A stretch of DNA of 64,000 nucleotides from a virus (lineage: Duplodnaviria > Caudoviricetes): the IMG/VR virus record IMGVR_UViG_3300024255_001563, positions 96,001 through 160,000 of that record, one strand, 5' to 3'. The position numbers and the translations under genes are program-made. The notes beneath the pieces were generated by a model that was not told the DNA's origin, made no database searches, and saw only the letters and a program-made list of their open reading frames with translations. Of this stretch, positions 39,204 to 64,000 are shown piece after piece. Numbering within the stretch: position 1 is the first letter of the stretch; every line of letters starts with the position of its first letter.

Positions 39204-39207
39204 AACA

Positions 39208-39215: not shown

Positions 39216-39239
39216 CAATGTCGCAATAGGGGTTTATAA

Positions 39240-42776: not shown

Positions 42777-42805
42777 TTGACATAATTATTAACTGAGTAT
42801 ATAAT
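42777..42805 (+). promoter_or_regulatory. Perfect sigma70-type promoter heading the enzyme island
   Basis: TTGACA (42777-42782), 17-nt spacer, TATAAT (42800-42805); GGAG RBS before ATG 42830. Confidence 0.85.
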
Positions 42806-42829
42806 TAATAGTATACTTGGAGATTTCGT

Positions 42830-43177
42830 ATGGATGAAAGATTAGCAAAAGCATTAGAGTTTTCGAATTACATGACAACTCTAAATAATCAAAAACGCAT
42901 TATAAGAGAACAATTTTTAGAAGATTGTGTTCATTATATTAATGGTGGTAAATTTGCAGTTAACAGAGAATTGATTACATTTTGTCAAACACTTGTAAAT
43001 AATCAACAACCTACTGCGGTACTCATTGATGATAACGAAACGCCTATTGAAGTAACAGATTTGAAAAAGTTTCTAGACGACATTCTTGATATTTATTTTA
43101 CTACAACTAATCAGTATTTAGACAAATACAACGAGATAAAAACAAATAGGACAATTGAAGGTTTAATTAACATATGA
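42830..43177 (+). CDS. Hypothetical helical protein
   Basis: 115-aa ORF with a good RBS; first gene behind the sigma70 promoter. Confidence 0.75.
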   Translation: MDERLAKALEFSNYMTTLNNQKRIIREQFLEDCVHYINGGKFAVNRELITFCQTLVNNQQPTAVLIDDNETPIEVTDLKKFLDDILDIYFTTTNQYLDKYNEIKTNRTIEGLINI

Positions 43178-44028
43178 GTCGCGGCGTACTTTTATTTGCG
43201 CAAAACAATCATACTATTGACTATATTAAACAAGCACTATTTTGCGCAAAGAAAATTAAAAAACATTTAGGACTATCAGTAACTATTGCTACAGATACGC
43301 CTAAGTACCTTTATGAAAAATATCCATACTATTCTAAATATATTGATAATGTAATAAATTTAGATTGGGAAGAATGTTCGCAAAAGCGTGTCTATCAAGA
43401 CGGTACTATGAGTAACAGAAACTTAGAGTGGAGAAATCACAATAGAACAACAGTGTATGACATTACGCCATACGACGAAACTATTGTAATGGACACTGAC
43501 TTTATAATAGGCAATAATCAGTTGTTGCATACATTTGACACTGCTGAAGATTTTTTAATTGTTAAAGATATTACAGATGTTAACCCGGAAAGAAATACTT
43601 CATTTAATAAAATTAGTGATAGAAGTATTGACATGTACTGGGCAACATTATTTTATTTTAAAAAAACAGAACAAACAGAATTATTTTTTAATTTAGTTAC
43701 ACACATTAAAGAAAATTGGTTGTATTATAGATTAGTATATCAGATACCTGATAAGATGTACAGAAACGATTTTAGTTTTAGTATTGCTATACACCTTATG
43801 AATGGAAATCAAAAAACAAACTGGCCAAAACAGCCGCCAGGCAATCTTTGGTTTACTACTGATATGGATGTCTTAATAAAAATGGAAGACGAAGATTATG
43901 TGTTTCTATTAGACAAAAAAGACTGGAAAGGACATTATATTGCTGCATCTGTAAAGGATGCTAGTATACATATTATGAACAAGTTTAGTCTTGATAGAGC
44001 AATTAGTGAGGTGTTAAAAAATGAGTAA
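43174..44028 (+). CDS. GT-A fold glycosyltransferase-like protein
   Basis: GVLLFAQNN...TIATD...TPYDETIVMDTD (DxD motif)...YRNDFSFSIAIH...IHIMNK. Confidence 0.65.
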   Translation: MSRGVLLFAQNNHTIDYIKQALFCAKKIKKHLGLSVTIATDTPKYLYEKYPYYSKYIDNVINLDWEECSQKRVYQDGTMSNRNLEWRNHNRTTVYDITPYDETIVMDTDFIIGNNQLLHTFDTAEDFLIVKDITDVNPERNTSFNKISDRSIDMYWATLFYFKKTEQTELFFNLVTHIKENWLYYRLVYQIPDKMYRNDFSFSIAIHLMNGNQKTNWPKQPPGNLWFTTDMDVLIKMEDEDYVFLLDKKDWKGHYIAASVKDASIHIMNKFSLDRAISEVLKNE

Positions 44029-44860
44029 AGGATTTTGTTTACTTGCACAAAACAATAGCACAACAGATTATGTTCGCCAGGCATATGCTCTCGCCTTAAG
44101 TTTACACAAGTACAATCGTAATCAAAAAATTAGTCTTATTACAAATGACACAATTCCAAAAGAATGGCAAAAAGTGTTTGATCAGATTATTCCGATTCCG
44201 TGGACAGATAGTGCAGAAACTAGTAACTGGAAAATAGAAAATCGTTGGAAAGTTTATCATGCTAGTCCGTACGAGCAAACGATTGTATTGGAAGCAGACA
44301 TGCTTATACTAAGTGACATAACGCACTGGTGGAAAGAGCTAGATAAGTATGAATTGTTTTTTACTAGCAATGTACAAACGTATAGACAAGAAACAGTAAC
44401 TTCTCGGTATTATAGAAAAACATTTGATGCTAATAACCTTCCTAATCTATATAGCGCATTACATTATTTTAAAAAAGGCAATACTGCAAAAGAATTCTAT
44501 ACACTACTAGAGATTATAGTTAATAACTGGGAATTATTTTACAGTAAATATGCAAAAGAGCGTTATCAAAAATGGTGCAGTATCGATTTGTGTGCAGCAA
44601 TTGCTAGTAAAATTTTAGGCAATGAAAAACAAATAACAAATGCAGATAGTTATATAACGTTTACCCACATGAAGACGCATACACAAGCTTGGCAATATGT
44701 TCCTGAACAATGGACTAATGTAATAGGAAAGTACTATCGAAATGATGGAAGTTTAGTGTTAGGTAATTTTGCACAAACCGGAATACTTCATTACGTAGAA
44801 GACAATTTTTTAACAGATAAAATAATAGAGAAATTAAAAGATGCAAAAGTATTATCTTAA
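44021..44860 (+). CDS. GT-A fold glycosyltransferase-like protein (paralog)
   Basis: GFCLLAQNN...SLITND...SPYEQTIVLEAD (ExD variant)...TFTHMK...LHYVE. Confidence 0.65.
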   Translation: MSKGFCLLAQNNSTTDYVRQAYALALSLHKYNRNQKISLITNDTIPKEWQKVFDQIIPIPWTDSAETSNWKIENRWKVYHASPYEQTIVLEADMLILSDITHWWKELDKYELFFTSNVQTYRQETVTSRYYRKTFDANNLPNLYSALHYFKKGNTAKEFYTLLEIIVNNWELFYSKYAKERYQKWCSIDLCAAIASKILGNEKQITNADSYITFTHMKTHTQAWQYVPEQWTNVIGKYYRNDGSLVLGNFAQTGILHYVEDNFLTDKIIEKLKDAKVLS

Positions 44861-45407
44861 CTTTAGAGAAGACGGTACAATTTTAAAAGTTGGCAATGTA
44901 CTTGACGAGTCTTCCTTATACATAGAAATAGAAAAATATTTAGTACAAGATTTTGCAAATTGTAAAAAAGAGTTTAAAGACTATCTTGTAGTCCCAAGCG
45001 ATTCTGCAGATGCAAACTATGTAATGAAATTTAGGCATACATCATTAGAAGACTTTGATGTTGACAGAAGTATTTTACAATTGTCTAAAACTCTTATTAG
45101 CGAAAGACTAAACTTTATTATTCTACAAGACCCTAGAAACGGAGTATGGAAAGCAAAATTAACAGACGATTTAAAATCTTTGTTAACAAGCACATCATAT
45201 TATAAAGATAAATCGCATACACTATTTGTCACAGACGAAGATGATCCTAATGTATTACTTGACACACTAGTTGTTGAGTTTTCTGAATTGCTTTATAAAG
45301 ACGAGTGCATAATAAAAAATACTAATAAAGAGGTTGCTCAGAGGACTGATGTGAGTGTATACTGTGGTAAGGTCTTTGAAAATTATAGTCATATTATGGA
45401 GAACTAA
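44841..45407 (+). CDS. Hypothetical protein
   Basis: 188-aa ORF overlapping its neighbours; no motif recognised. Confidence 0.65.
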   Translation: MQKYYLNFREDGTILKVGNVLDESSLYIEIEKYLVQDFANCKKEFKDYLVVPSDSADANYVMKFRHTSLEDFDVDRSILQLSKTLISERLNFIILQDPRNGVWKAKLTDDLKSLLTSTSYYKDKSHTLFVTDEDDPNVLLDTLVVEFSELLYKDECIIKNTNKEVAQRTDVSVYCGKVFENYSHIMEN

Positions 45408-46306
45408 TGCCTAATAAAATTAAAATAATTGATCAAGATATTATCTTTCTTAGTTACGACGAGCCTAACGCAGAAAAAAATTATGCAGACTTGTGTAGTA
45501 AAGTACCGTGGGCAAAACGTGTGCATGGTGTACACGGCAGTGATGCAGCTCACAAAGCTTGTGCAGATTTAAGTGAAACAGAATACTTTGTTACTGTAGA
45601 TGCAGATAATATTGTTGATCCAGAGTTTTTAAATCAAGTAGTTGATTACGAATCGTTAGGGCTGTCAGCAGACCATGTGTTTAGTTGGTGCGGTAAGTTA
45701 CATGTTAACGGACTAATGTACGGCAACGGCGGATTAAAAATGTGGACACGTAAGTTTGTACACAATATGAAGACACATGAACATTCAGAAGACGGCGACG
45801 AACGCGGCAAAGTAGAATTTTGCTTTGACGACAAGTACTATCAGTTCAACGAAAACTTTAGTGTATCCTACACAAACGAAACACCTTGGCAAGCCTGGCG
45901 AGCTGGATTTAGAGAAGGTGTTAAGATGAGTTTGGATCAAGGTGCTAAAGTAGAAGACTTGCGTAAAGTATGGTGGCAAAACTATGATAGGCTTTTAATA
46001 TGGAGTCAAGTAGGTGCTGATGTTAAAAATGGTATATGGAGTATACTAGGCGCACGACAAGGTTGTTATCTAACAAACTGTACACCATGGGACTATGCTA
46101 ACGTGCGTGACTTTGAATGGCTAAACAACTTTTGGGAAACAGAAGTAAAAGATGTTGATCCAAAAGAAGAAGCAGAACGTTTAGGTTTAGAAATACTTAA
46201 AGGTACCGGAGTTGATATTTCTACTAAACCTTTAGACGCAGAACAAAGCAAATTTTTTAAACAAGTCTATCAAAATAGTGCAAGGATACTAAGAAGAGCA
46301 AAATGA
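45407..46306 (+). CDS. GT-A-like nucleotide-sugar transferase
   Basis: IIFLSYDEPNAE...RVHGVHGSDAAHKACA...YFVTVDADN (DxD)...YGNGGLKMW...AWRAGFREGVK. Confidence 0.65.
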   Translation: MPNKIKIIDQDIIFLSYDEPNAEKNYADLCSKVPWAKRVHGVHGSDAAHKACADLSETEYFVTVDADNIVDPEFLNQVVDYESLGLSADHVFSWCGKLHVNGLMYGNGGLKMWTRKFVHNMKTHEHSEDGDERGKVEFCFDDKYYQFNENFSVSYTNETPWQAWRAGFREGVKMSLDQGAKVEDLRKVWWQNYDRLLIWSQVGADVKNGIWSILGARQGCYLTNCTPWDYANVRDFEWLNNFWETEVKDVDPKEEAERLGLEILKGTGVDISTKPLDAEQSKFFKQVYQNSARILRRAK

Positions 46307-46800
46307 ATTTAAATGTAAAAAAATTTAAAGCGTCAATTGACAACTTTTTTGGCTGGGTAAAGAAAACAGAACTAGTAGAGCTAGATGATATTGATGTAAC
46401 AGAAGATCCAGTACGTCCAGAGCTTGATGTAGAATGGCGTACTAGTTATGGACGTAAGATATACGGACTAAAGCACGAAAATGAAATTGAAGGTATTATC
46501 TGCATTGCATATACTAATGATGTACCTAAAAGTGTAAAAGAGTTAGACTTAATGAGTCAAAATGCTCATTTTAAAAATGATGTTAATACGGCAGTTGCTT
46601 ATACAGTATGGAGTCGTAAGCGTGGCGCTGGTAAAGAGATAATACACAAAATAGGCGACTTAATGAAGTCTCGTGATGATATTGAAACACTAGTAACCCT
46701 ATCACCGTTAACGCCAATGGCAACACACTTTCACATACGTAATGGTGCAAAACAAATTGCTATTAGCAATACAACACAGAATTTTAAATATACATTATGA
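46303..46800 (+). CDS. GNAT-fold protein resembling the malonyl-CoA decarboxylase catalytic domain
   Basis: IICIAYTNDVP...TAVAYTVWS..RGAGKEII...TLVTLSP parallels MCD A(I/V)FYSIS...G..LI...F.TLSP (from memory). Confidence 0.45.
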   Translation: MNLNVKKFKASIDNFFGWVKKTELVELDDIDVTEDPVRPELDVEWRTSYGRKIYGLKHENEIEGIICIAYTNDVPKSVKELDLMSQNAHFKNDVNTAVAYTVWSRKRGAGKEIIHKIGDLMKSRDDIETLVTLSPLTPMATHFHIRNGAKQIAISNTTQNFKYTL

Positions 46801-48179
46801 GTAATGAACAGCGTATACAAGTACTAGAAGAAAAACGTGAAAAGATAAACAATGTAAGTTGTTCATTCTGTACGGCTAAATGGTTACAAACTACGCTACT
46901 ATTACAAAACGGTTACAATCACAGTTGTCATCATCCTGCTCCACATAAGATTCCGTTGCACGAAATTGAAGCAAATCCAGCGGCACTACACAACAGTAAG
47001 TTTAAAAAAGAACAACGTGCTAAGATGCTTAAAGGTGAGCGTCCTAAGGAGTGCGGATACTGTTGGAAAATTGAAGACTTAGATAAAAACTATTTTAGTG
47101 ATAGACATTATAAAACAAGTGACTCTTGGGCCTGGGATAGATTTGAAGATATTGCTAAAAGCAATCCACAAGACGATGTGTACCCAAGTTACTTAGAAGT
47201 ATCATTTAGTAATGCTTGTAACTTTGCTTGTGCATACTGTTCACCTGAGATTAGTAGCAAGTGGATGGAAGACGTAAAGCAACACGGAGAATATCCAACC
47301 AAGCACGGTTCGCATAATCTAGACTATTTAAAAGAGTCTGGTAAGATGCCAATACCTAATAGAGAACATAATCCTTATGTAGAAGCATTTTGGAAATGGT
47401 TTCCTGATGCATTACCGCATTTAAAAGTGTTGCGTATCACAGGCGGCGAGCCTACTATGTCAAAAGATACCTGGAAGCTTCTAGATTATCTAATAGAAAA
47501 TCCACGCAAAGGTTTAGACATTTCCATTAATACAAACGGATGTGTAGAAGATAAACTAATTGACAAACTAATTTTAAAAGTTAACAAACTTGCAAAAGTA
47601 GGAGTTAAAGTTGACATATACACTAGTCTTGAAAGCACAGGCCGCCAGGCGGAATATGCTAGAGACGGATTAGTATACTATGATTGGGTTAAAAACATAG
47701 AGCGTTTGCTTTCTGAAACAAAAAGCACAGTTGCAATTATGACAACAATTAACATTCTTAGCTTGCCTACATTCGTCGACTTTATTATGACGGTAATGGA
47801 TTTGCGTAAACTTTATAATACTAGTTTTGAGTGTAATAGAGTGCCGTTGAGTATTAATATTATGCATTGGCCTCCGCATCTTCAATGTACTTTGCTCGAT
47901 AAAGAACAACGTGTAAAGACTGCTAACACTATTGAAACACTTTGCAAAAGTTGGTTAAAATATTATACTAAAGAAAAGTATGCTAGAATATATTTAGAAG
48001 AGTTTGATCAAATACAAAGATTTTGTGATTATTTAAGAACCTCAGAACCAACAGTGGAACACAGAGAAGACTTTGTAAGATACATACAAGCGTACGACAA
48101 AAGAAGAAATAAAGATTTTGCAGAAATATTTCCACAGTATACACATTTATTAGAGGAATGGAATGCCAAAGAAGACTGA
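46797..48179 (+). CDS. Radical SAM protein 1 (N-terminal Cys cluster, twitch-like)
   Basis: CNFACAYC (CX3CX2C), ITGGEPT; N-terminal CTAKW..SCHHP..ECGYC. Confidence 0.9.
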   Translation: MSNEQRIQVLEEKREKINNVSCSFCTAKWLQTTLLLQNGYNHSCHHPAPHKIPLHEIEANPAALHNSKFKKEQRAKMLKGERPKECGYCWKIEDLDKNYFSDRHYKTSDSWAWDRFEDIAKSNPQDDVYPSYLEVSFSNACNFACAYCSPEISSKWMEDVKQHGEYPTKHGSHNLDYLKESGKMPIPNREHNPYVEAFWKWFPDALPHLKVLRITGGEPTMSKDTWKLLDYLIENPRKGLDISINTNGCVEDKLIDKLILKVNKLAKVGVKVDIYTSLESTGRQAEYARDGLVYYDWVKNIERLLSETKSTVAIMTTINILSLPTFVDFIMTVMDLRKLYNTSFECNRVPLSINIMHWPPHLQCTLLDKEQRVKTANTIETLCKSWLKYYTKEKYARIYLEEFDQIQRFCDYLRTSEPTVEHREDFVRYIQAYDKRRNKDFAEIFPQYTHLLEEWNAKED

Positions 48180-49611
48180 TGAAACGTTACAACAGTATCG
48201 TGATAGAGTATTAGACAATAAAAGTAAGAGTTTCTGCGGAGCCAAGTGGTTTAACGCTACTACCTGGCTTGGTAGTGGTACAACTGCTAGTTGTCATCAC
48301 CCGCCTGCACATAAAATTCCATTAGTAGAAGTAGAAGCAGACTACACTGCTATTCATAATACCAAGCATAAAAAAGAAATGCGCCGCCAAATGCAGACAG
48401 GTGAACGCCCAGCTGAGTGCGAGTATTGTTGGAAAATGGAAGATATGAAAAAGGATGCTGTCAGTGACAGAACCTTTAAAAGCATTATCTATTCTGATGA
48501 AGAGTTACAACGTGCATATGATATGGATCATCATGAGAATGTTAATCTAAAAACATTTGAGATTGCTTTTGATAGAACGTGTAACTTAGCATGTAGTTAT
48601 TGCAATGCAAGTTTCTCAACTACGTGGGCTAAAGATATTAAAAAGAATGGCGAGTACACAAACTTAGTAAGTGATGGCGCTGGTGCATTTAGACAAGACG
48701 GCAGTTGGACACAACCTTACAAAGATGATGACGATAATCCTTACATTCAAGCGTTTTGGAAATGGTGGGATAATGGTTTAGCAGACAGTTTAGAGGAACT
48801 GCGTATCACTGGCGGCGAACCTTTAATGAGCGGAAACACTTGGAAGTTGTTTGATTGGTTTAATAAGCAAGATTCAGATATGCGTTTTGCAATTAATAGC
48901 AATCTAATTGCTAAAGATGCTATTATAGACAAGCTAATTGAGAAAACACAAGGTATGAATCACTTTGAGTTGTATACTAGTTGTGAAGCAGTAGGTGCTC
49001 AAGCAGATTATATTCGTGACGGACTAGATTATGACGAATGGACTAAAAATATTAAACGTATACTAACAGAAGCAAATACTAAAGGCGTACACATTATGAT
49101 GACTATTAACAGTCTTTGCTTGTTTAGTATTACAGAATTCTTAGATGATGTTTACAAACTAAAAGAGCTCACACAAAGTAGAACGCCAACTGTAAGTTTA
49201 AACTTATTACGCTTTCCGAGTTTTCAATCACCGCTGGCATTGCCTAATCATATTAAGGATCATTGCCATAATAAATTGTCAACATGGTATGAAGCTAACA
49301 AAGACAAGCCGGGCTGGAGTGAGTTTGAAAAAGCAAGTATTGAACGTTTAATAGATTACTTGGTAACTGTAGATGCTCCGCATAGACGTACAAGTAACCC
49401 TACTACACTATGGCGTGATTTTAAAACATTCTATGCACAGTATGATGTACGTAGAAACAAAAGCCTAAGTGTATTTCCTAAAATACTAACAGACTGGGTC
49501 GATAGTATTCCAGATACTGATGCAAGCATTATGGAACTTGCAGAAAAAGAAGGTTGGATATTAAAACCTGATAATAAAAACATAGAAATACCTTTGGCAA
49601 CGTATGACTGA
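48163..49611 (+). CDS. Radical SAM protein 2 (N-terminal Cys cluster)
   Basis: CNLACSYC, ITGGEPL; N-terminal FCGAKW..SCHHP..ECEYC. Confidence 0.9.
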   Translation: MPKKTDETLQQYRDRVLDNKSKSFCGAKWFNATTWLGSGTTASCHHPPAHKIPLVEVEADYTAIHNTKHKKEMRRQMQTGERPAECEYCWKMEDMKKDAVSDRTFKSIIYSDEELQRAYDMDHHENVNLKTFEIAFDRTCNLACSYCNASFSTTWAKDIKKNGEYTNLVSDGAGAFRQDGSWTQPYKDDDDNPYIQAFWKWWDNGLADSLEELRITGGEPLMSGNTWKLFDWFNKQDSDMRFAINSNLIAKDAIIDKLIEKTQGMNHFELYTSCEAVGAQADYIRDGLDYDEWTKNIKRILTEANTKGVHIMMTINSLCLFSITEFLDDVYKLKELTQSRTPTVSLNLLRFPSFQSPLALPNHIKDHCHNKLSTWYEANKDKPGWSEFEKASIERLIDYLVTVDAPHRRTSNPTTLWRDFKTFYAQYDVRRNKSLSVFPKILTDWVDSIPDTDASIMELAEKEGWILKPDNKNIEIPLATYD

Positions 49612-50914
49612 TAAAATTGGACCTTACTTTTGCACAGCACCCTGGACACATACTTACGTTAGCCCGCAAGGCGAGCGTAGGTTGTGTTGTGCTAGTAGAG
49701 AAGATGCAAGTTTTCAAAAGCAGTATATAGATGCAGGTGATAAAGACAACACTGAATTTGATCCAATAACACTCGAAGAACATTGGAACAGCGATTATAT
49801 GAAAGATATTCGTAAGCGTATGTTAGCCGGAGAAAAACTAAGCCAGTGCGATGTGTGTAATAATCAAGTATTAAATTTACATACATACAAAAACTATTTT
49901 ACTAATACACTATTTCCGCACAAAGTCGAAGACATAATAGCTAGTACAAAAGAAGACGGCTACACAACTATGCAACCAATTAGTTTTGATTATCGTATAA
50001 GCAATCTTTGTAATTTTAAATGTCGCATGTGCGGTGAACAACTTAGTTCAAGTTGGGAAACTGAAAAGATTAAACATAATGTAGTTAACTACAAACGTGA
50101 AAAATGGATGCAACCAGACACACGAAAGAAGATTGCTACATTTCAAAAAGAAGTTCTCGAAACAGAACTACAAACAGCAGTTGACAAAGGCATTGTAGAG
50201 GAGTTATACTGGGTAGGCGGCGAGCCACTTATGTATGATATACATTGGCGTATTATGCAACAGCTAGTAGACGAAGAAAAAAGCCAAGACGTAGTTGTAC
50301 GTTATAATACAAACTTGAGCAGAACACACTACAAGAATTATAAACTGTACGACATGCTAGATAACTTCAAACGTGTTAACCTTTGTGCTAGTATAGACGG
50401 GGTAGGCGAAGTCGGCGAATACATTAGAACAGGACTCAAATGGGACGAGTGGCTACAAAACTTCAAAGATGGCATGTTTCTTATCAATAAGTATGGAGAC
50501 GATGCATTAGTATTTGATGTTACACTAACAACTCCGGGATTGTTTGATTTGAAACGTATGTTTGATGTAGTTACAGAATTAGATGTTAAGAGTTACTTTA
50601 AAATTACATTTGCATTTGACCCTAGTGTTCTAATGAGTCCTATGTGTTTGCCAAGAGAAGTATTAGATGAGCAAATACACAAACTACTAGACTACATTAA
50701 GCCTAGAGTTACACACAAAACTCGTGTGTACCAAGAAACATTAGAAAACATGCTTGAACGCAAAACGTTTGAAGAAGAATACACTGACTATAAAGATGGT
50801 TGGAGACGAGGTAAAAAGAATATAATGTTTATAGAAAGCATCAGAACGCAAGACGTTACATTTAGAGACACTCTTAGTGACGCAGGTAAAGAATGGTGGG
50901 ATAGCATTGAGTAA
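49604..50914 (+). CDS. Radical SAM protein 3 (N-terminal twitch-like)
   Basis: CNFKCRMC, WVGGEPL; FCTAPW..LCC..QCDVC. Confidence 0.9.
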   Translation: MTDKIGPYFCTAPWTHTYVSPQGERRLCCASREDASFQKQYIDAGDKDNTEFDPITLEEHWNSDYMKDIRKRMLAGEKLSQCDVCNNQVLNLHTYKNYFTNTLFPHKVEDIIASTKEDGYTTMQPISFDYRISNLCNFKCRMCGEQLSSSWETEKIKHNVVNYKREKWMQPDTRKKIATFQKEVLETELQTAVDKGIVEELYWVGGEPLMYDIHWRIMQQLVDEEKSQDVVVRYNTNLSRTHYKNYKLYDMLDNFKRVNLCASIDGVGEVGEYIRTGLKWDEWLQNFKDGMFLINKYGDDALVFDVTLTTPGLFDLKRMFDVVTELDVKSYFKITFAFDPSVLMSPMCLPREVLDEQIHKLLDYIKPRVTHKTRVYQETLENMLERKTFEEEYTDYKDGWRRGKKNIMFIESIRTQDVTFRDTLSDAGKEWWDSIE

Positions 50915-54581: not shown

Positions 54582-54590
54582 GTTTATAAT
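54562..54590 (+). promoter_or_regulatory. Perfect sigma70-type internal promoter
   Basis: TTGACA (54562-54567), 17-nt spacer, TATAAT (54585-54590), 7 nt before ATG 54598. Confidence 0.8.
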
Positions 54591-54597
54591 ATACATA

Positions 54598-56532: not shown

Positions 56533-57502
56533 CAACATAACAAAGTTTGGACAAAAAACCTTGTTAGACACTAACTTGTTTACAGTGTCTTGGATCCTTG
56601 CGAGATTTTGTAATTACAATTGTAGCTACTGCTGGCCTTATGCAAGAAGTAGTACACCCGACCATCAAACATTAGAAACATACAAAACTGCATTAACTGA
56701 AATAAAGCGACAGGCAAGAGATAACGGATTTACAGACTTCCATTTTAGTTTTAGTGGAGGCGAGCCTACGGCATATAAATACTTTGGGGAGCTCATAGAG
56801 CATTATTGCAGTGATGCAACACCCGAATACCAAAGTATCCACATGACAACAAATCTTAGCCCGGGAAGCAAATGGTGGAACAAGTGGTTAGAAACTACAA
56901 GCACTCTGCAACGTAGAAGTATAACAGCGAGCTATCACGCAGAGTTTGCTAATGAACAAGAATTTGGAGACAAATGTCTTCAACTTATGAAAGAAGGTGT
57001 TTATGTTACAATCAATCAAGTTATGGTTCCGGAAATGTTCGAAGAGCTTTACGGACGCTTGGAGCGATTTGCCGCCAGAGGTATTAATGTCACTCTCAAA
57101 CCCCAGTCCGATCCTACCGCCAGTAGTGTGGTACATGGTTACACAACCAATGAAATCGAAACCATGCAAAAAGGGTTCCCACAAAAAATCCCAGATGAAT
57201 TTAAAAGAATAATTCCTTTACTGCAAGTTGAATTAGAAGACAGCACTGGAAAAACGTACTACATAGATCAAGCAGAACGCTTTAATGCATTTGGATTTAA
57301 TAAGTTTAAAGGATGGGAATGTAATGCAGGCTATCAAGGATGCGTTATACGTAGTAATGAAGTTAAACGCAGCTACAGTTGCCACGATGAACCCTTAGGC
57401 ACGTTAGACGGCGGATTTGAGCTGTTTAAAGCACCACGTAAGTGCGTTACTCCTAGCTGTGTAAGCAGTGCAGATAGTAAACTACCAAAGAGAAAAATAT
57501 GA
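56492..57502 (+). CDS. Radical SAM protein 6 (C-terminal twitch/SPASM); true start probably ATG 56504
   Basis: CNYNCSYC, FSGGEPT; C-terminal WECNAG...SYSC...CVTPSCVS. Confidence 0.9.
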   Translation: MIGYMKNFQNIPFDNITKFGQKTLLDTNLFTVSWILARFCNYNCSYCWPYARSSTPDHQTLETYKTALTEIKRQARDNGFTDFHFSFSGGEPTAYKYFGELIEHYCSDATPEYQSIHMTTNLSPGSKWWNKWLETTSTLQRRSITASYHAEFANEQEFGDKCLQLMKEGVYVTINQVMVPEMFEELYGRLERFAARGINVTLKPQSDPTASSVVHGYTTNEIETMQKGFPQKIPDEFKRIIPLLQVELEDSTGKTYYIDQAERFNAFGFNKFKGWECNAGYQGCVIRSNEVKRSYSCHDEPLGTLDGGFELFKAPRKCVTPSCVSSADSKLPKRKI

Positions 57503-58104
57503 AAATAGATATACAAGATGTATTATTCTGGATGGATGCAATTCGCAACAGCGATGACAAATACCGTACACTTGAAAGCTTCTGGAAAGGACAAGTCAAC
57601 AGCAAGATATGGCTTGCTGACGCACTGCGTGTAAACTACGTTGACGATGATGCTCGTATTGTAATATACGGCGGCTGGAATGGTGTGCTTTCTAGTATCT
57701 TATTTAATAGCAGTTTAAGCATTGAGCATATTACAAGTGTTGACATTGATGAAGATTGCCAAGAAACTGCATACACAGTTAATAAAAACTATGAAATAGC
57801 AGGAAGATTTGATGCAGTAACCGCAGACATGTGTACTTACACAGAACCTGCTGACATTGTTATTAACACAAGCTGCGAACACATTACGCAAGAACAATAC
57901 GAACAGTGGTTAGACATTCAACCAGACGATGCGCTATTTGTAATACAAAGCAATAACTACTTTGAGTTAGACGAGCACATTCGTTGTGCAACTGATCAAG
58001 ATGACTTTATGCGCATGAGTAAAATCAAACCATACTGGAGAGGCGAATTTAAAACCCCTAAGTATACTCGTTATATGATTATAGGTAAAAAGAAGAATGT
58101 ATAA
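57499..58104 (+). CDS. Class I SAM-dependent methyltransferase-like protein
   Basis: IVIYGGWNG (motif I variant), SVDID, ADM, IVINTSCEH. Confidence 0.7.
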   Translation: MKIDIQDVLFWMDAIRNSDDKYRTLESFWKGQVNSKIWLADALRVNYVDDDARIVIYGGWNGVLSSILFNSSLSIEHITSVDIDEDCQETAYTVNKNYEIAGRFDAVTADMCTYTEPADIVINTSCEHITQEQYEQWLDIQPDDALFVIQSNNYFELDEHIRCATDQDDFMRMSKIKPYWRGEFKTPKYTRYMIIGKKKNV

Positions 58105-58915
58105 TAGAATAGTAGCATATGGGTGTAGTATTACTTCAGGATTTGAACTTGCAGATTACGAACTAATGCCATCTTTAAATTTTGTTGAAATAAATAAAAT
58201 AAAAGCAAAGGGAGTCGAATTCTGGAGAGACAAAATTGAAAGCAAATACTCTCTTGAATATATTGACAGTAGAGAACATAATCACGCCTGGCCGCAGCAT
58301 TTAGCAAACAAACTTAATGTTGACGTAGTTAATAGAGCTTATCCAGGAAGTAATAGTGAGTCGTCTATATATTTTTTAGAGGAAGATATTAGTAGAGGTT
58401 TTATAAAACCTACTGATCTTATAATTGTTGCTCATACAGAAAGTTCGAGATGGTTCTATCTTGACAAAGAATGCAAAAAACATCATTGTTGTCCAGGCGG
58501 CCTACCAAAAGAGTGGAATTCACAGCTATCGCACAGATTAAGATGGCCGTCGAAATCGTTTCATAAAGATTATGTTTTACATGTATCTAACGATTTTAAC
58601 GATATGTTTCGATGGTTTAAAGATATAAAGTATCTAGAAATGCTATCAAAAAAACATAATATTTTACAAGTTTTTGCATTCACCCCGTTTTTAACTCAGT
58701 TACACAATAACATTAACAAGTTTAAAGAATACAATTTATTAAATGCATATAACTCAGTTAAAGAATTTAATTCTATATTAGATAACTACTTTTCTTTTAA
58801 TGATTTAGTTAATTGGGATGATTCTAGTCAATTGCATACATACACGCATCCTAAAGAAGAATATCATATAGAGTACGCAAATTATATATACAAAAAAATA
58901 AAAGACAGGCAGTAG
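58097..58915 (+). CDS. SGNH/GDSL hydrolase-like protein (acyl-transferase/esterase)
   Basis: IVAYGCSITSG (block I), AWPQHLA, VVNRAYPGS (block II), C-terminal THP...H..YA (block V). Confidence 0.65.
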   Translation: MYNRIVAYGCSITSGFELADYELMPSLNFVEINKIKAKGVEFWRDKIESKYSLEYIDSREHNHAWPQHLANKLNVDVVNRAYPGSNSESSIYFLEEDISRGFIKPTDLIIVAHTESSRWFYLDKECKKHHCCPGGLPKEWNSQLSHRLRWPSKSFHKDYVLHVSNDFNDMFRWFKDIKYLEMLSKKHNILQVFAFTPFLTQLHNNINKFKEYNLLNAYNSVKEFNSILDNYFSFNDLVNWDDSSQLHTYTHPKEEYHIEYANYIYKKIKDRQ

Positions 58916-60004
58916 ATGTTTAACTTTGAAAATTTAGAAAAGGCACAAGTCGAAATAACCAATCGTTGCCAAGCTAGCTGTCCAATGTGCTTAAGGAATA
59001 TTCACGGCGGTATAGAAAATCCTAATCTAACTAGTCATGATTGGACATTAGAAGATTTTAAAGAAATATTTACACCAAAAATTTTACAACAATTAAAGCG
59101 TATAGACTTTTGCGGAGATTTTGGAGAACCTACAGTTAATAATGATTTAATTAGCATGTGTGCTTATATTAAACAGCAAAATCCTGAACTAGAAACTGCT
59201 ATTTTTACTAACGGTAGCACAAGAACACTAGGCTGGTGGAAACGCCTAGCACAGGCGCTTACAGTGCGTCACAAGGTAGAATTTGCACTAGATGGACTTA
59301 GTGATACGCATAGTTTATATAGAGTCGGAACAGACTATGATAAGATTACTAAAAATGCACAAGCATTTGCAAAAGCCGGTGGATATGCAGTATGGATGTT
59401 TATAAGATTTAAACATAACCAAGAACAAGTAAAAGACGCAGAAATTATATCTAGAAAGTTTGGGTTTTCAGAGTTTCATGTTAAAAACAGCAAACGATTT
59501 GGAGATACCTTTCCAGTATTAGATAAACAAGGCAATGTAACACATTATTTAGATCAGCCAGATGTTACACCTATCAAGTTCTTTGATAAAAATGATTTGT
59601 TATCTTACAAATCTTGGCCTGAAGCAGAAAAAGTTAATTGTATGGTGTTACACGATAAAGAAATTTATATAGATGCTAACTTTACAGTATTACCGTGCTG
59701 TCTGCTTGGTAGTTTTTTATATGCAAACTATGATGAAGTTTTATATAAAAAGTATGATGTATATAAGCATTCATCTATTGTAGATGTAGGAAAAATTGCA
59801 CAAAAGGAAACTTATAGAATTGTAGAAGAACTTGGCGGATTACAAGCATTAGATGCAAAAAAAGGTTTAGAAAATATTGTTAATGATCCTAAATGGCAAA
59901 CTATTTGGCAAAGAGAATGGAGTAACAAAACATCTCCTGCATGTATTGTATTATGCGGAAAAAATACTCCATTAACACGGGTCGAAGATCAGGTAGAGCG
60001 ATAA
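58916..60004 (+). CDS. Radical SAM protein 7 (C-terminal twitch)
   Basis: CQASCPMC, FCGDFGEP; C-terminal VNC...LPCC...ACIVLC. Confidence 0.9.
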   Translation: MFNFENLEKAQVEITNRCQASCPMCLRNIHGGIENPNLTSHDWTLEDFKEIFTPKILQQLKRIDFCGDFGEPTVNNDLISMCAYIKQQNPELETAIFTNGSTRTLGWWKRLAQALTVRHKVEFALDGLSDTHSLYRVGTDYDKITKNAQAFAKAGGYAVWMFIRFKHNQEQVKDAEIISRKFGFSEFHVKNSKRFGDTFPVLDKQGNVTHYLDQPDVTPIKFFDKNDLLSYKSWPEAEKVNCMVLHDKEIYIDANFTVLPCCLLGSFLYANYDEVLYKKYDVYKHSSIVDVGKIAQKETYRIVEELGGLQALDAKKGLENIVNDPKWQTIWQREWSNKTSPACIVLCGKNTPLTRVEDQVER

Positions 60005-60013
60005 GTAGATATA

Positions 60014-61096
60014 ATGATAAACTTTAATCAACTTAAACAAATCCATTTAGAAATTACAAATAACTGTCAAGCAAGTTGTCCTATGTGTACTAGAAATATT
60101 CACGGAGGACTTAAAAATCCTAATATTAATAAACGTGGATGGACACTTGATGACTATAAAAAAATTATATCTCCAGAAGTTATAGAGCAAATTGAAAATG
60201 TTTACTTTTGTGGAAACTATGGCGATCCATTATTGAACGACCAATTGCTCGAAATGGTCGAGTATACTACTTCTATTAAAAAAGATATCAAAATTACTAT
60301 ACATACTAATGGTAGTTTAAGAAGCAAAGAATGGTGGACAAACTTAGCAAAAGTTATGCCTAATAGTCATAGAGTAGTTTTTGCTATAGATGGATTAGAA
60401 GATACACAAACAATTTATAGAATTGGTACTAGTTACGAAAAAATAATCGAAAATGCAAAAGCATTTATAGATGCCGGCGGCATTGCAGAATGGGCTTATA
60501 TAAGATTTAAACATAACGAACATCAAGTAGAAGAAGCAAGACATCGAGCAATTGATATAGGGTTTGAATACTTTACAATGAAAGATAGTTCGCGGTGGTT
60601 AATGGAACCTAAATTTAAAGTCTTGGATAAACAAGGTAATATTGATTATTATTTAGAACCAAGTCAACATTCAACTATTAAAATTGTTGATACCGATATT
60701 ATTGGAAATTATAAAAGTATTTTAGAAAAAACAGAAATTAATTGTTATGCAAAACATGTAAAAGAAGTTTACATAGATTCTTATGGGCATGTATTTCCGT
60801 GTTGTTGGCTTGCAATGATTCCGTATCATCCTAAAGATTTGGAACACGAATTACATGAAATTCGAGAAGCAATTTATGCAGAATATTTTGACTTAGTTAA
60901 ATCACTAGGTGGTATAGACGCATTAGACGTAAAGAAAAAACCGTTGAAGGATATTATTAATTCAGACGAATATCAAAATGTTTGGAATAGTTATTGGACG
61001 GATAAAAAATTAATTACTTGCGGCAGAGCTTGCGGAATACAACCTGAATTGTTTTCTACGCCGCAGGACCAATTTACAAGTAGGGAAGAGCTATGA
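60014..61096 (+). CDS. Radical SAM protein 8 (tandem paralog of 7)
   Basis: CQASCPMC, FCGNYGDP; INC...FPCC...TCGRAC. Confidence 0.9.
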   Translation: MINFNQLKQIHLEITNNCQASCPMCTRNIHGGLKNPNINKRGWTLDDYKKIISPEVIEQIENVYFCGNYGDPLLNDQLLEMVEYTTSIKKDIKITIHTNGSLRSKEWWTNLAKVMPNSHRVVFAIDGLEDTQTIYRIGTSYEKIIENAKAFIDAGGIAEWAYIRFKHNEHQVEEARHRAIDIGFEYFTMKDSSRWLMEPKFKVLDKQGNIDYYLEPSQHSTIKIVDTDIIGNYKSILEKTEINCYAKHVKEVYIDSYGHVFPCCWLAMIPYHPKDLEHELHEIREAIYAEYFDLVKSLGGIDALDVKKKPLKDIINSDEYQNVWNSYWTDKKLITCGRACGIQPELFSTPQDQFTSREEL

Positions 61097-62505
61097 AAGA
61101 TTTATATTGGCTACAAGACGAAAATAGTCGAATGGGAAAAGGACAGCGAGATGTTTTTGAAAAAACAGGATCTTATACATTTTGCGCACTTCCTTGGATA
61201 CATATAGCAACAAGACCTAACGGTGATGCTAGACTTTGCTGTGTAACAAATGCATCAGGTGCTCATACAGGAGATCACGAAGTTGGTCTTGTTAAAATGG
61301 AAAATGGTGAGCCTGCAAACTTTGGTAAAGATTCATTAAAAGAAGCATTTAATAATGACTACATGTGTAGTGTAAGAAAAACAATGATAGAAGGTAAAAT
61401 ACCTGCTAGTTGTACAAAGTGCTTTGAAGAAGAATCAAACGGAGTTGTAAGTAAACGTCTCTGGGAATTACATGAATGGAACAACGATGGGTTGGATTTT
61501 GCACAGCTAATAAAAGATACAAGCGAAGATGGAAAGATTCCGCACGAAATACAATATTTTGATTTAAGATTAGGTCATACTTGTAACTTGAAGTGTGTAA
61601 TGTGTAGTCCGCACGATAGCAGTCGATGGATGGAAGACTACGAAAAGATTATAGCAACCTCAAACAGTCAAACAGTTATACGACAAATAAGTTGGGATAA
61701 AACAAAGTTTAATAATAAATGGTACGAAAAGCCAGAACTTTGGGAAGAAATTTTTGAACAAATACCACATATTAAACAGTTGTATTTTGCTGGCGGTGAG
61801 CCTTTAATGATTAAAGAACATAGAAAATTTTTATTAGAAATAATTAAAAGAGGATATGCTAAAAATATATGTTTACGATATAACTCTAATGGTGTCTTTG
61901 TAAATCAAGATATGATCGATATTTGGACAGAATTTAAACAAGTTAGATTTGCATTTAGTTTAGATGCAGTCGACGAACGTAACTATTATATTAGATACCC
62001 TACTAAGTGGAAAGATGTAGAGCGTAGTTTAGAGTTAATGGATAATACTCCGGATCATATACATTGTCATATTGCCTGTGCAGTACAGGCATTAAATGTA
62101 AAACATATTGTTCACTTTGCAAAATGGAAACTTACTAAAGGCTATAAGAAAATTAATAAGTTTAAAACAGATATCTATGAAGCAGGTGGCGGAATAATTA
62201 ATCTACATTTACTGTACATTCCTACATTTTTAAGTGCAAGGATATTACCTGAAAAAGACAAACAAGAAATACGTGAACAGTTTGCAGAGTTTAAACAGTG
62301 GCTTTGGGACAATTATACACAAGATGATAACTTTTGGCACGAAAATCCTTATGGTTGGAAACGTTGGGAAGGTATATTAAGATTTATCGACGCAGAAGAT
62401 CATTCACACTTATTACCTGACTTTAAAGATTATGTTAATAACCTTGATAAAATTAGAGGCTTAAATGCAAAAGAAGTATTTCCAGAATTGAAACATTTGC
62501 TATGA
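61093..62505 (+). CDS. Radical SAM protein 9 (N-terminal twitch-like)
   Basis: CNLKCVMC, FAGGEPL; FCALPW..LCC..SCTKC. Confidence 0.9.
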   Translation: MKDLYWLQDENSRMGKGQRDVFEKTGSYTFCALPWIHIATRPNGDARLCCVTNASGAHTGDHEVGLVKMENGEPANFGKDSLKEAFNNDYMCSVRKTMIEGKIPASCTKCFEEESNGVVSKRLWELHEWNNDGLDFAQLIKDTSEDGKIPHEIQYFDLRLGHTCNLKCVMCSPHDSSRWMEDYEKIIATSNSQTVIRQISWDKTKFNNKWYEKPELWEEIFEQIPHIKQLYFAGGEPLMIKEHRKFLLEIIKRGYAKNICLRYNSNGVFVNQDMIDIWTEFKQVRFAFSLDAVDERNYYIRYPTKWKDVERSLELMDNTPDHIHCHIACAVQALNVKHIVHFAKWKLTKGYKKINKFKTDIYEAGGGIINLHLLYIPTFLSARILPEKDKQEIREQFAEFKQWLWDNYTQDDNFWHENPYGWKRWEGILRFIDAEDHSHLLPDFKDYVNNLDKIRGLNAKEVFPELKHLL

Positions 62506-63539
62506 CAACCCCTATTAAGATAAAATCTACTAGAGAAGACTCTTATCTAGATATTAGATGGATGCCTAATAACGTTTGTAATTTTAAATGCAGATACTGT
62601 TTTCCAGGTAGTAATGACGGGGACTATCCTAGCCCTAAAGATATAAATCTTATTATAAAAAACTTCAAACATTTGTTAACTGTTTATAAAGAGCAGTTAG
62701 GAAAAACAAAAACACATATTGAAATTATGGGGGGAGAGCCTACACTTTGGAGAGATCTTGATATATTCGTACAAGAAATTAAAAAAGATCACAATGTTTA
62801 TATTAGTCTTATAACTAATGGGTCACGAACATTGCGGTGGTGGAAAGAAAAAGGACACCTCGTAGACAATATTCATTTGACACATCATGTTGCTCAGGCA
62901 AACTTAGATCACACAATTGGTGTAGCAGATGCTATGTATGATTTAGGAAAGAAAATTACTGTAAAAGTTTTGATGGATCCTACTTGTTGGGACGATTGTG
63001 TAGATGCTGTAGAATATTTAAAAAGGAACAGCAAACACAAATGGTTTGTTACAGTAGCAGAAGTAATAGAAACGGAATCAACTACGTTAAACGACATTAG
63101 AATAATAACCACTGATGATTTAAAGTATACTCCGGAACAGAAAAAGTATATGAAATGGGGTATAAAACAATTACCTAATTTTAAATGGTTTTGGAATAAC
63201 AGAAATCTTATAGCAAACGGTGAAATTAGATATACTGAAAGTGTTGCTACACTAGAAAACAATAAAAAGGTAAGAGCAGAGTCCGGAACTTACATTAATA
63301 AAAATTGGAACAATTTTAAAGGATGGAGTTGCAACATTGGCGTAGATAGTATCTTTATTAATTGGGACGGAACACTTAAAGGATCTTGTGGAGAGTTTCT
63401 TTACGGTTTGAATTATTACTACAACATACTTGACAACGACTTCGAACAAAAATTTGATACGGAAATAAAGCCAACTATATGTTCAAAGTTTAATTGTATT
63501 TGTGCTCCTGAAACACATCTAACTAAGAAGAAACTTTAG
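62502..63539 (+). CDS. Radical SAM protein 10 (C-terminal twitch/SPASM)
   Basis: CNFKCRYC, MGGEPT; WSCNIG...GSC...CSKFNCIC. Confidence 0.9.
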   Translation: MTTPIKIKSTREDSYLDIRWMPNNVCNFKCRYCFPGSNDGDYPSPKDINLIIKNFKHLLTVYKEQLGKTKTHIEIMGGEPTLWRDLDIFVQEIKKDHNVYISLITNGSRTLRWWKEKGHLVDNIHLTHHVAQANLDHTIGVADAMYDLGKKITVKVLMDPTCWDDCVDAVEYLKRNSKHKWFVTVAEVIETESTTLNDIRIITTDDLKYTPEQKKYMKWGIKQLPNFKWFWNNRNLIANGEIRYTESVATLENNKKVRAESGTYINKNWNNFKGWSCNIGVDSIFINWDGTLKGSCGEFLYGLNYYYNILDNDFEQKFDTEIKPTICSKFNCICAPETHLTKKKL

Positions 63540-63999
63540 TTAACGGAATATCAGCAGCACAAGTACACCACTTACGTGTACAAGTAATTGGTTCTAAAGG
63601 TTGTTTAAACGTACCATTATAAATATTTCCTAGACTACCGCCTACTCTACAAGTAGCACGATGAACCTCGCCGTCCCAATTGATCATCAGACTTTCTAAA
63701 CCTGCATTACAAGTCCAGCCCTCGAATTGATTTAGTTTATGTTTAATAATATCATTAGCATGTATCATATCTTTTCCGTCTATGACGCAGTTTGCCTTCA
63801 CAGTTGCAGTTTTACTAAGTATCCATTCTAAGTCTTGTCCGTTATACCTCATATCGTCAAACCATTCTCGATCGTCAGCATCAGTCCATCGTATTCGTCT
63901 ACACACATACGGAATACGATGACTTTCAAGCAATGATGCTACATCGCGTACTTGATTCATATATTCATGATGACACATTAAGTTAACTTGAAATAGCGT
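63523..63999 (-). CDS. Radical SAM protein 11, C-terminal twitch/SPASM part; runs off the right edge
   Basis: GWTCNAG.ESL.I.WDG.V.RATC...GN...CTRKWCTC matches the C-termini of proteins 6 and 10. The frame stays open upstream of ATG 63978 (TLFQVNL) to the edge. Confidence 0.75.
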   Translation of the reverse strand, partial: TLFQVNLMCHHEYMNQVRDVASLLESHRIPYVCRRIRWTDADDREWFDDMRYNGQDLEWILSKTATVKANCVIDGKDMIHANDIIKHKLNQFEGWTCNAGLESLMINWDGEVHRATCRVGGSLGNIYNGTFKQPLEPITCTRKWCTCAADIPLTKVSS

Positions 64000-64000
64000 A

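Follow-up and report, generated by a model that had tools for sequence, protein, structure and literature searches.

Organization and Genomic Setting of the Radical SAM Island

A stretch of 64,000 nucleotides of viral DNA (hereafter, the window), corresponding to bases 96001–160000 of the linear 200,843-bp IMG/VR virus record IMGVR_UViG_3300024255_001563, carries directly behind its tail-fiber genes an island of genes encoding radical S-adenosylmethionine (rSAM) enzymes together with glycosyltransferase (GT)-like proteins. The record is about 57% complete according to CheckV, and gene absences in it are to be read accordingly. Genes are named here by the lower window coordinate, and the sequence running beyond the window end is labeled L001, where L001:1523-2479(-) corresponds to 63523-64479 in window-extended coordinates. 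Twenty plus-strand open reading frames (ORFs) fill positions 42830-63539, and the island extends about 16 kb past the window end. The near-universal overlap coupling reported in a first-pass annotation of this DNA was found again, as 17 of the 19 plus-strand junctions overlap by 1–41 nt, with gaps of 9 and 16 nt at the remaining two; ORFs 58097 and 58916 abut. That annotation did not notice the continuation of about 16 kb, the membership of seven proteins in the named family NF033640, or the mentions of such genes in the literature on marine T4-like phages, all of which are described below.

The genes upstream of the island are of T4 type and include SbcCD-like nuclease subunits, baseplate hub and wedge proteins, and three fiber ORFs. 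The latter (35149, 37242, and 39240, spanning 35149-40787) match tail-fiber PHROGs, in agreement with the position after fiber genes given originally. The baseplate wedge protein shares 33–36% identity with its counterparts in the jumbo myophages Phosso, SCTP-2, Atu_ph07, fHe-Yen9-04, and PA5oct. Comparison of the island DNA (9.7 kb, megablast) with 50,697 phage records gave no match, and no isolate genome matches; the window stretch was found nearly unchanged in many seawater metagenome runs. Judging from this recurrence in seawater and the lack of a match among isolates, the source is an uncultured marine jumbo myophage, and the island lies in its fiber-adjacent hypervariable region.

Two promoters serve the 20 plus-strand genes, which thus form two coupled operons. 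Both are perfect sigma70 sites, as first described, and they occupy the only two relevant intergenic positions: the one heading the first operon (TTGACA-N17-TATAAT, 42777..42805, plus strand) lies 25 nt before 42830, and the one heading the second operon (54562..54590, plus strand) lies 7 nt before the ATG of 54598. Five perfect TTGACA-N17-TATAAT sites occur in the window versus 0.18 expected, the remaining three preceding minus-strand early-type genes at 769, 8582, and 9464. Only this perfect-consensus class is enriched, since the total of promoter-like sites in the window (88 versus 84.6 expected) is not above chance. Similar sites were observed in related loci, where 62% of the 42830 homologues are preceded, within 120 nt, by a site matching the promoter at 11/12 positions or more, and where a perfect site precedes the 54598 homologue in 9 cases and a 10/12 site in 30 more. 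The structural and fiber genes 9518, 15218, 34531, 39240, and 40817 have instead a TAAATA box, mostly about 15–30 nt before the ATG, and these boxes look like T4-type late promoters. Given this contrast, which fits the early-promoter reading proposed at first, the island appears to belong to a different, early-type temporal class than the fiber genes it follows. In addition, the perfect TTGACA/TATAAT sequences suggest a host main sigma factor reading canonical -35/-10 boxes, a consensus that we take to argue against a Bacteroidota host.

Radical SAM Proteins of the Island

Ten complete ORFs within 46797-63539 (starting at 46797, 48163, 49604, 50877, 52084, 56492, 58916, 60014, 61093, and 62502) carry exactly one CX3CX2C motif each, and all match Pfam PF04055. 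Eight of them score 34–54 bits, above the gathering threshold of 29.5 bits; the two below it, 48163 (23.2 bits) and 52084 (27.5 bits), reach 305 and 410 bits on the NCBIfam model NF033640. The motif scan and PF04055 agree with the count of ten complete rSAM genes and one partial gene made in the first-pass annotation. The partial eleventh gene proved to be the C-terminal half of a 318-aa rSAM protein of subfamily C on the minus strand (63523..64479; PF04055 39.4 bits), of which only the part up to 64000 is in the window, its CX3CX2C (residue 41) lying just outside. Across the whole record there are 13 PF04055 matches, all within 46797-73116 (window-extended) and all keeping CX3CX2C; the three rSAM genes beyond the window lie just downstream on the minus strand, with one such motif each.

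These 13 genes fall into four subfamilies, A to D. Subfamily A has seven members (46797, 48163, 49604, 50877, 52084, 61093, and L001:2421-3686(-)), which match NF033640 (N_Twi_rSAM) end to end (model positions 1–398) with 305.4–410.5 bits against a cut-off of 170; with scores of 18–51 bits, the other six rSAM genes are non-members. The members complete in the window, all on the plus strand, are 46797..48179 (329.8 bits; CX3CX2C at residue 141), 48163..49611 (305.4 bits; CX3CX2C at residue 140; 37.5% identical to 46797), 49604..50914 (323.3 bits; CX3CX2C at residue 136; SPASM/twitch match N-terminal of the core), 50877..52094 (341.9 bits; CX3CX2C at residue 143; GTG start, the true start perhaps being later), 52084..53274 (410.5 bits; invariant Cys set and GGEP; AF2 model with pLDDT 86), and 61093..62505 (390.5 bits; CX3CX2C at residue 164). 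More than 6000 relatives of 52084 were found at E ≤ 1e-10 in public metagenome data.

Throughout subfamily A, the SPASM-type Pfam match sits N-terminal of the rSAM core, in inverted order. In an alignment of 13 N_Twi sequences (the seven island members and six metagenomic relatives), C6, C25, C66, and C69 are invariant and are followed by C120/C124/C127 and GGEP, and the N-terminal domain of the resulting profile matches the twitch domain of BtrN (chain residues 184–262) at E 1e-5. The full SPASM pattern of seven or eight Cys is absent from this alignment, which has only four invariant auxiliary Cys, and the Pfam SPASM model matches a half-domain. On the basis of these residues, the auxiliary region of the N_Twi proteins is a twitch domain with one predicted auxiliary Fe-S cluster, not a full SPASM domain.

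Subfamily B consists of two plus-strand genes that are 41% identical, 58916..60004 (PF04055 match; CX3CX2C at residue 18; C242, C261, C262, C343, and C347, twitch/SPASM-like) and 60014..61096 (PF04055 45.1 bits; PF13186, SPASM-type, over residues 250–332), the best NCBIfam matches of the latter lying far under the cut-offs. Subfamily C includes, besides 63523(-), the related plus-strand genes 56492..57502 (PF04055 45.6 bits; CX3CX2C at residue 40; C-terminal Cys) and 62502..63539 (PF04055 49 bits; CX3CX2C at residue 26). Protein 56492 is weakly STM4011- or viperin-like, and its NCBIfam matches are all far under the cut-offs. Subfamilies B and C have CX3CX2C near the start and Cys groups at the C-terminus. 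Subfamily D is represented by L001:10070-11116(-), with an HMPTM-type zinc ribbon and weak similarity to Tes/TrsS. For every rSAM gene of the island, the NCBIfam models that are named for a function all score under their cut-offs.

The model NF033640 exceeded its cut-off in none of 14 control genomes, so the N_Twi enzymes of the island are not housekeeping enzymes; the possibility weighed in the first-pass annotation, that the enzymes are unrelated housekeeping singletons, was not borne out. Identity among the rSAM paralogues of the island is only 20–41%. In a FastTree phylogeny of 237 relatives, each window N_Twi paralogue, 46797 among them, falls in its own clade with phage and bacterial orthologues (4–65 sequences, support 61–99), the largest being that of 61093 (65 sequences, 52 of them bacterial). 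Values of dN/dS against the closest relative (locus L007) were 0.05–0.13 for the rSAM and GT genes (0.060 for 46797), rough figures as dS is near saturation. Separate clades, low identity, and low dN/dS together indicate that the rSAM genes are old, distinct, and maintained, and by these measures the seven N-twitch paralogues form ancient, separate orthologue groups on which purifying selection acts.

A fold search with the 52084 model gave as best match the cytosylglucuronate decarboxylase BlsE (PDB 7VOB; Z 11.3, rmsd 3.3 Å, 203 residues aligned), and DesII, AprD4, and CteB were also among the structural matches. The likeness to BlsE, which acts on a sugar acid, is set against an identity of 16%, an rSAM_BlsE (NCBIfam) score of about 18 bits versus a cut-off of 400, and an effective tie with anSME, SkfB, MoaA, and SuiB (Z 9.7–10.8). 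What these matches recover is the rSAM fold in general; enzymes acting on sugars, nucleotides, and peptides are tied, and the substrate is not revealed. Among PDB sequences, the best match of the N_Twi profile was 8VPO, an rSAM enzyme of a pathway for ribosomally made peptides modified after translation (RiPP), which was set aside as it matches the core only, and a phmmer search of 46797 against the PDB returned nothing. Some homologues of 52084 (P0025, P0046, P0049, and others) have an N-terminal extension of 140–250 aa with a conserved MSYIxF start, in some cases with long hydrophobic stretches; no recognizable domain and no island relative was found for the extensions of these fused homologues (538–639 aa).

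Glycosyltransferase-Like Core Genes

Four GT-A-like genes are supported by a glycogenin profile and a GT2-fold model, at the upper end of the three or four counted previously: two are GT8/glycogenin-like (43174 and 44021) and two are GT2-like (45407 and 54598), all on the plus strand. The first core gene, 42830..43177 (plus strand), encodes a 115-aa protein of unknown function with no family match above threshold; 43 related viral loci have a homologue, in each case as the first gene behind the fiber genes. It is followed by 43174..44028, a GT8/glycogenin-like GT-A candidate (family profile A2; no Pfam match), and its GT8-like paralogue 44021..44860 (27% identity, E 8e-14; dN/dS 0.085 versus L007). 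The profile of this family matches glycogenin in the PDB at E 3.4e-5, only over residues 16–114, and within the family D107 is nearly invariant and D109 invariant. The next gene, 44841..45407 (plus strand), encodes a 188-aa protein of unknown function with only a weak match to an unknown-function PHROG and nothing useful in the Atlas; related loci have an ORF of 180–205 aa at the same place in the core.

The GT2-like GT-A domain protein 45407..46306 (dN/dS 0.062) is 31% identical to residues 420–635 of 54598 (E 5e-25). The latter (54598..56532, 644 aa) is the anchor gene of the core and has four degenerate repeats of about 100 aa, followed by a GT-A domain with a DGD motif, in which the family keeps D474 and D476 without exception and G475 almost always. 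Its AF2 model (pLDDT 87) matched the GT2 enzymes K4CP, GtrB, SunS, and PcManGT with a Foldseek probability of 1.0, ThuS and Mimivirus R699 being also among the fold matches, and residues 420–641 match AFDB GT2 clusters. The modeled fold thus supports the assignment of 54598 and 45407 as GT2-like GT-A proteins. The alignment profile of 54598 (A1) gave only chance matches to mitochondrial TFAM among PDB sequences, which were rejected, and Pfam (E up to 5), NCBIfam, and PHROGs yielded nothing usable for 42830, 43174, 44021, 44841, 53271, and most downstream genes.

Other Genes of the Island

Among the accessory enzymes named in the first-pass annotation, the GNAT/malonyl-CoA decarboxylase-like protein was recovered by profile: 46303..46800 (plus strand) is a malonyl-CoA decarboxylase C-terminal/GNAT-like acyltransferase candidate (PF05292, E 2.5e-5, 24.5 bits versus a threshold of 23.2). 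The methyltransferase and the SGNH protein have only sub-threshold matches and motifs read by eye, and both are weak calls: 57499..58104 (plus strand) is class I S-adenosylmethionine-methyltransferase-like (Spermine_synth, E 0.0085; Rossmann-type motifs), its homologues coming after 54598 in 38 loci, and 58097..58915 (plus strand) is an SGNH/GDSL-like esterase candidate (Lipase_GDSL_2, E 0.09) in which an N-terminal GCS replaces GDS. Gene 53271..54581 (plus strand) encodes a 436-aa protein of a virus-only family with no Pfam, NCBIfam, or PHROG match. Its structural neighbors in the Atlas include viral proteins fused to Epimerase/GDP_Man_Dehyd or MTS methyltransferase domains, and a sugar-handling domain in this protein is possible, GT10 being only a weak lead.

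Beyond the window, L001 encodes a PP-loop ATPase (65676) with a QueC-like SGGADS motif and C-terminal Cys, and a pyridoxal phosphate (PLP) aminotransferase-like protein (L001:4371-5348, minus strand; g66371) in which S-x-[ST]-K-G-L (K230) and D202 are invariant in six sequences. The latter has no Pfam match, and its Atlas neighbors are named aminotransferase class I/II or V (0.91–0.98). Four tandem paralogues of 169–192 aa (L001:7115-9262, minus strand) share an invariant HxD...H...R, typical of Fe/2-oxoglutarate (Fe/2OG) dioxygenases, and the C-terminus of L001:5921-7120 is related to them. There is a further cupin-like ORF, and a conserved oxygenase-like ORF occupies a downstream gap of 572 nt. 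Next come oxygenases resembling Asp/Asn beta-hydroxylase and TauD, and the island is closed by a fiber-type protein of 468 aa (L001:18290-19696(-)) whose N-terminal domain is Mtd_N (major tropism determinant). Far downstream, L001:15595-16461(+) encodes a protein without family assignment, the one protein in this region that has a clear membrane span (hydropathy of up to 2.84 over 19 residues). The 200-kb record has no match for Fe-S assembly proteins (PF01521, PF01592), flavodoxin, or 2Fe-2S ferredoxin.

Distribution in Phages and Bacteria

The comparison of neighborhoods across phages that the first-pass annotation had called for revealed a fixed core with variable rSAM content. Relatives of 54598 are encoded on 110 viral contigs, and in 80 related viral loci the core (42830 to 45407 plus 54598) lies directly after the fiber genes in a constant order: fiber genes, 42830, 43174, 44021, an ORF of about 195 aa, 45407, and then 54598. 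Insertions of rSAM genes are found in the interval from 45407 to 54598 and also after 54598. In the 20 loci whose flanks are complete, 0 to 11 rSAM genes lie within 10 kb of the core; three of these loci have none, and others have 4–11. Even the closest relative (L007) has no 52084 and carries a different gene set after 57499. In distant phage-like contigs, 46797-, 48163-, 52084-, and 49604-like genes recur in unchanged order as a sub-cassette, and several contigs binned into bacterial metagenome-assembled genomes are clearly the same kind of phage. In some phages 65676-like (PP-loop) genes occur twice per array, and on a phage-sized contig of 160 kb a similar rSAM array is accompanied by a carbamoyltransferase gene and two genes for UDP-sugar dehydrogenases.

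Cultured carriers with small arrays are Vibrio phages K566 and K567 and Ralstonia phage RsoM2USA, the last being the only isolate with a relative of the 54598 C-terminal domain. The annotations around the rSAM arrays of these isolates are all "hypothetical". In Vibrio phage K566 (L167, 161548-165950), three annotated rSAM genes follow one another, and about 5 kb downstream there is a gene for a PagP-like lipid A acyltransferase.

Such genes have been noticed before in marine phages. A hypervariable host recognition cluster (HRC) around the tail-fiber genes was described in pelagimyophages and cyanomyophages, with glycosyltransferases, of which GT8 was the commonest, and rSAM "gene cassettes" that differ between close relatives (Zaragoza-Solas et al. 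2020, PMC7029224), and a T4-like marine viral genome with 12 rSAM genes was reported by Nishimura et al. (2017, PMC5332604). Both papers mention the rSAM genes in passing and assign no family, order, or function. The first-pass statement that no characterized phage system of this kind was known holds as far as function is concerned, but such cassettes as such were already on record. Like the HRC, the island is a hypervariable block at the fiber genes with GT genes and variable rSAM cassettes; unlike in the HRC phages, the phage backbone here has its nearest relatives among jumbo myophages (Atu_ph07, SCTP-2, Phosso, PA5oct). A single ORF of 5266 aa at window positions 18709-34509 (plus strand), between the baseplate wedge gene and the fiber genes, may be the counterpart of the giant VrlC-type protein that marks the pelagimyophage HRC (PMC7029224).

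A pattern search over one genome per species returned 294 relatives. With phage-like contigs set aside, 41 of 69 bacterial loci have 2–10 island-like rSAM genes within 10 kb, and many of these arrays are on megabase-scale Bdellovibrionota contigs, with subfamilies A, B, and C mixed. Five bacterial array loci also have the aminotransferase-like gene (g66371-like). On a 1.89-Mb Bdellovibrionales chromosome, eight tandem rSAM genes adjoin Asn_synthase, GT2, UDPG_MGDP_dh, and PMT_2 genes, and GT2 was the commonest family among 131 neighbors in 13 bacterial loci, in which Asp_Arg_Hydrox and GDSL recur. Tandem arrays of 4–10 rSAM genes belonging to the subfamilies of the island were seen on Bdellovibrionota chromosomes and a Parcubacteria-labeled contig (L150/L168, L123, L144, L151, L154). 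In L150, several adjacent rSAM copies have near-identical N-termini, which suggests recent local duplication there.

Putative Function of the Island

We consider it somewhat probable that the island is a modular pathway that builds a glycan and tailors it by radical chemistry. A pathway, and not a heap of unrelated genes, is indicated by the tight coupling and by the conservation of each orthologue group. A sugar-containing substrate is suggested because GTs, sugar dehydrogenases, and amidotransferases recur as company of the rSAM genes in phages and cells, and because of the BtrN-like twitch domain, the putative PLP enzyme that travels with the arrays, and the lack of a RiPP recognition element (RRE) or precursor gene. 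The joint glycan pathway proposed in the first-pass annotation thus gained comparative support, as the GT core and rSAM cassettes travel together and the bacterial arrays have GT2, UDP-sugar dehydrogenase, AsnB-like, and PMT_2 neighbors; its radical step on a sugar still draws on analogy, being inferred by likeness to BtrN/BtrS, DesI/DesII, AprD4, and BlsE.

In such a pathway, host RNA polymerase would transcribe the two operons early after infection, and the GTs would assemble sugars of the host nucleotide-sugar pool on a cytoplasmic acceptor. Each rSAM enzyme could then abstract hydrogen from a particular sugar C-H, leading to oxidation, epimerization, deoxygenation, or decarboxylation, as in BtrN, DesII, AprD4, and BlsE. 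The aminotransferase-like enzyme might convert keto sugars into amino sugars, following the logic of BtrN/BtrS, the PP-loop enzyme might amidate carboxylates, and decorations would be attached or removed by the oxygenases together with the methyl-, acyl-, and esterase-type enzymes. Phages that swap rSAM cassettes would thereby make the product more diverse. The acceptor could be the virion fibers, a host envelope glycan, or a free product: the soluble enzymes and the position among fiber genes would suit virion glycosylation, and the early promoters and lipopolysaccharide (LPS)-type neighbors elsewhere, such as PagP near the K566 array, would suit remodeling of the host envelope. A bolder and more tentative proposal, rather less likely than not, is a combinatorial editing in which each N-twitch orthologue group performs a different C-H functionalization on a sugar of the phage-made glycan, and exchange of cassettes between marine jumbo phages and Bdellovibrionota diversifies this glycan in the manner of O-antigen loci.

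Comparison with known systems gives partial likenesses only. Seven island proteins share with the NF033640 family the Cys-rich twitch before the rSAM core; in the island the family is present as seven old paralogues mixed with three other rSAM subfamilies. As in the butirosin (BtrN/BtrS) and desosamine (DesI/DesII) pathways, the rSAM arrays travel with a PLP aminotransferase-like gene, but no DHQS-like or 4,6-dehydratase partner was found (zero matches to the DHQS-like 2-deoxy-scyllo-inosose synthase family, PF01761, in the 200-kb record), and the N_Twi twitch is N-terminal where that of BtrN is C-terminal, with an identity of only 8–18%. Known virus glycosylation systems include the O-antigen-modifying GtrABC of temperate phages and the virion glycan machineries of chloroviruses and mimiviruses. 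Like these, the island places virus-borne GT-A genes beside structural genes, and GtrB and Mimivirus R699 match the fold of 54598; unlike GtrABC, the island shows neither a GtrA-type flippase nor a GtrC-type membrane transferase, and we know of no rSAM enzyme in any of the three systems. With the RiPP rSAM/SPASM maturases (SkfB, SuiB, CteB, anSME-type), the island proteins share an rSAM core with auxiliary Fe-S domains; unlike them, the island is without RRE/PqqD or precursor gene and the N_Twi proteins have only four conserved auxiliary Cys.

Several observations weigh against a glycan pathway. NF033640 is a named family without a characterized member, substrate, or reaction, and most known SPASM/twitch enzymes modify peptides. 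In the fold search, SkfB, anSME, SuiB, and MoaA came within about 1.5 Z of BlsE. The Pfam GT matches are all sub-threshold (PF00535 16.7 and 15.3 bits versus 23.3 for 54598 and 45407), no match for a UDP-sugar dehydrogenase or a sugar nucleotidyltransferase was found in the 200-kb record, and the bacterial neighborhood evidence comes from a few hand-picked loci. The downstream Asp/Asn hydroxylase-type and TauD-type oxygenases also fit the hydroxylation of a protein or small molecule. In addition, the window genes have no clear membrane span, so the pathway would be without its own exporter or lipid-carrier transferase; two rSAM genes barely reach the hydropathy flag of 1.6, which we read as barrel strands.

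If the island does act on sugars, its enzymes would represent a new reaction class for rSAM enzymology, and phages would be building exotic glycans on fibers or on the host surface, with bearing on host range and superinfection exclusion; it would also explain why ocean phages pay for many iron-sulfur proteins. The editing of individual glycan sugars by each orthologue group, if true, would give NF033640 its first function and amount to a glycan chemistry, encoded by a virus, that has no characterized counterpart. Members of the family turn up repeatedly in giant phages of marine, estuarine, and freshwater origin as well as in predatory Bdellovibrionota, and the cultured carriers make the question directly testable.

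Alternative Interpretations

The strongest competitor, unlikely in our estimation but to be taken seriously, is hypermodification of a protein, in which rSAM enzymes and oxygenases would epimerize, cross-link, or hydroxylate a phage protein (the fibers or the 5266-aa giant) before the GTs glycosylate it. The island is indeed flanked by fiber-type genes, with tail-fiber PHROGs upstream and the Mtd_N protein downstream, and it includes Asp/Asn beta-hydroxylase-like, TauD-like, and HxD...H oxygenase genes downstream. Peptide-modifying rSAM enzymes (SkfB, anSME, SuiB, CteB) are among the close structural matches, as are the peptide S-glycosyltransferases SunS and ThuS among those of 54598. However, the island proteins and the rest of the 200-kb record have no PqqD/RRE domain (zero PF05402 matches in the record, and none in the Pfam/NCBIfam scans of island proteins), and no RiPP precursor gene was found adjacent, the plus-strand block being coding throughout, with no gap above 16 nt. 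The fiber proteins have 0–2 Cys and no Cys-repeat modules, and their genes carry late TAAATA boxes, as opposed to the early sigma70 promoters of the island. Bacterial arrays of the same subfamilies are, moreover, found in polysaccharide-type neighborhoods without fiber genes.

A free secondary metabolite, that is, a soluble aminoglycoside-like pseudo-oligosaccharide and not a surface glycan or virion decoration, is improbable. Aminoglycoside pathways combine twitch rSAM enzymes (BtrN, NeoN, AprD4) with a PLP aminotransferase, GTs, GNAT, methyltransferase, Fe/2OG oxygenases, and carbamoyltransferase. The enzyme set of the island mirrors this combination, with carbamoyltransferase in related loci, and the window enzymes look soluble, so that an exporter would not be needed. 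Similar genes were also listed as "antibiotic synthesis genes" in a cyanophage paper (PMC12801897). Against such a product, no 2-deoxy-scyllo-inosose synthase (DHQS-like) gene is present in the record and no resistance or export gene was recognized. The constant place behind the fiber genes would be left unexplained, and the bacterial neighbor PMT_2 (GT-C type) points to glycosylation of a polymer or protein.

There is equally little likelihood that no joint pathway exists and that the locus is a hypervariable dump of independent auxiliary genes sharing only their location. Variation of this kind was observed, as content differs even from L007 (no 52084, another set after 57499), rSAM counts run from 0 to 11, and the paralogues are only 20–41% identical. 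However, the overlaps at 17 of 19 plus-strand junctions and the sharing of two promoters by 20 genes speak against it, arrays of the same subfamilies together with the aminotransferase-like gene are found again in phages and in bacterial chromosomes, and the order of the 46797/48163/52084/49604-like sub-cassette is kept in distant phage-like contigs.

Some phages use rSAM enzymes in thymidine hypermodification, and hypermodification of DNA, with GTs and rSAM enzymes building a glycosylated or otherwise modified base on phage DNA, would agree with the early promoters, as for the DNA-modifying enzymes of T-even phages, and with the PP-loop protein with its QueC-like SGGADS and C-terminal Cys, but it is very improbable, as no nucleotide-metabolism, kinase, or DNA-binding domain was recognized in the island, the bacterial arrays are in polysaccharide contexts, and a QueC role is at odds with the presence, in some phages, of two 65676-like genes per array.

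Island Sequences in Seawater RNA Libraries and Population Variants

Contigs from three seawater RNA libraries match the island; DNA carry-over is possible, and these contigs do not give strand, timing, or level. In RNA library X22, 38 of 46 pieces were at least 99% alike, and 27 of 30 island bins were covered. Contig joints that skip 58100-60047, a stretch comprising the SGNH-like gene and the rSAM gene 58916, were seen in one RNA-library contig and in DNA contigs of another seawater run, and joints of this kind also skip other stretches. With joint sides that are short (mostly under 30 letters), they give a weak hint of a population variant without the 58100-60047 cassette.

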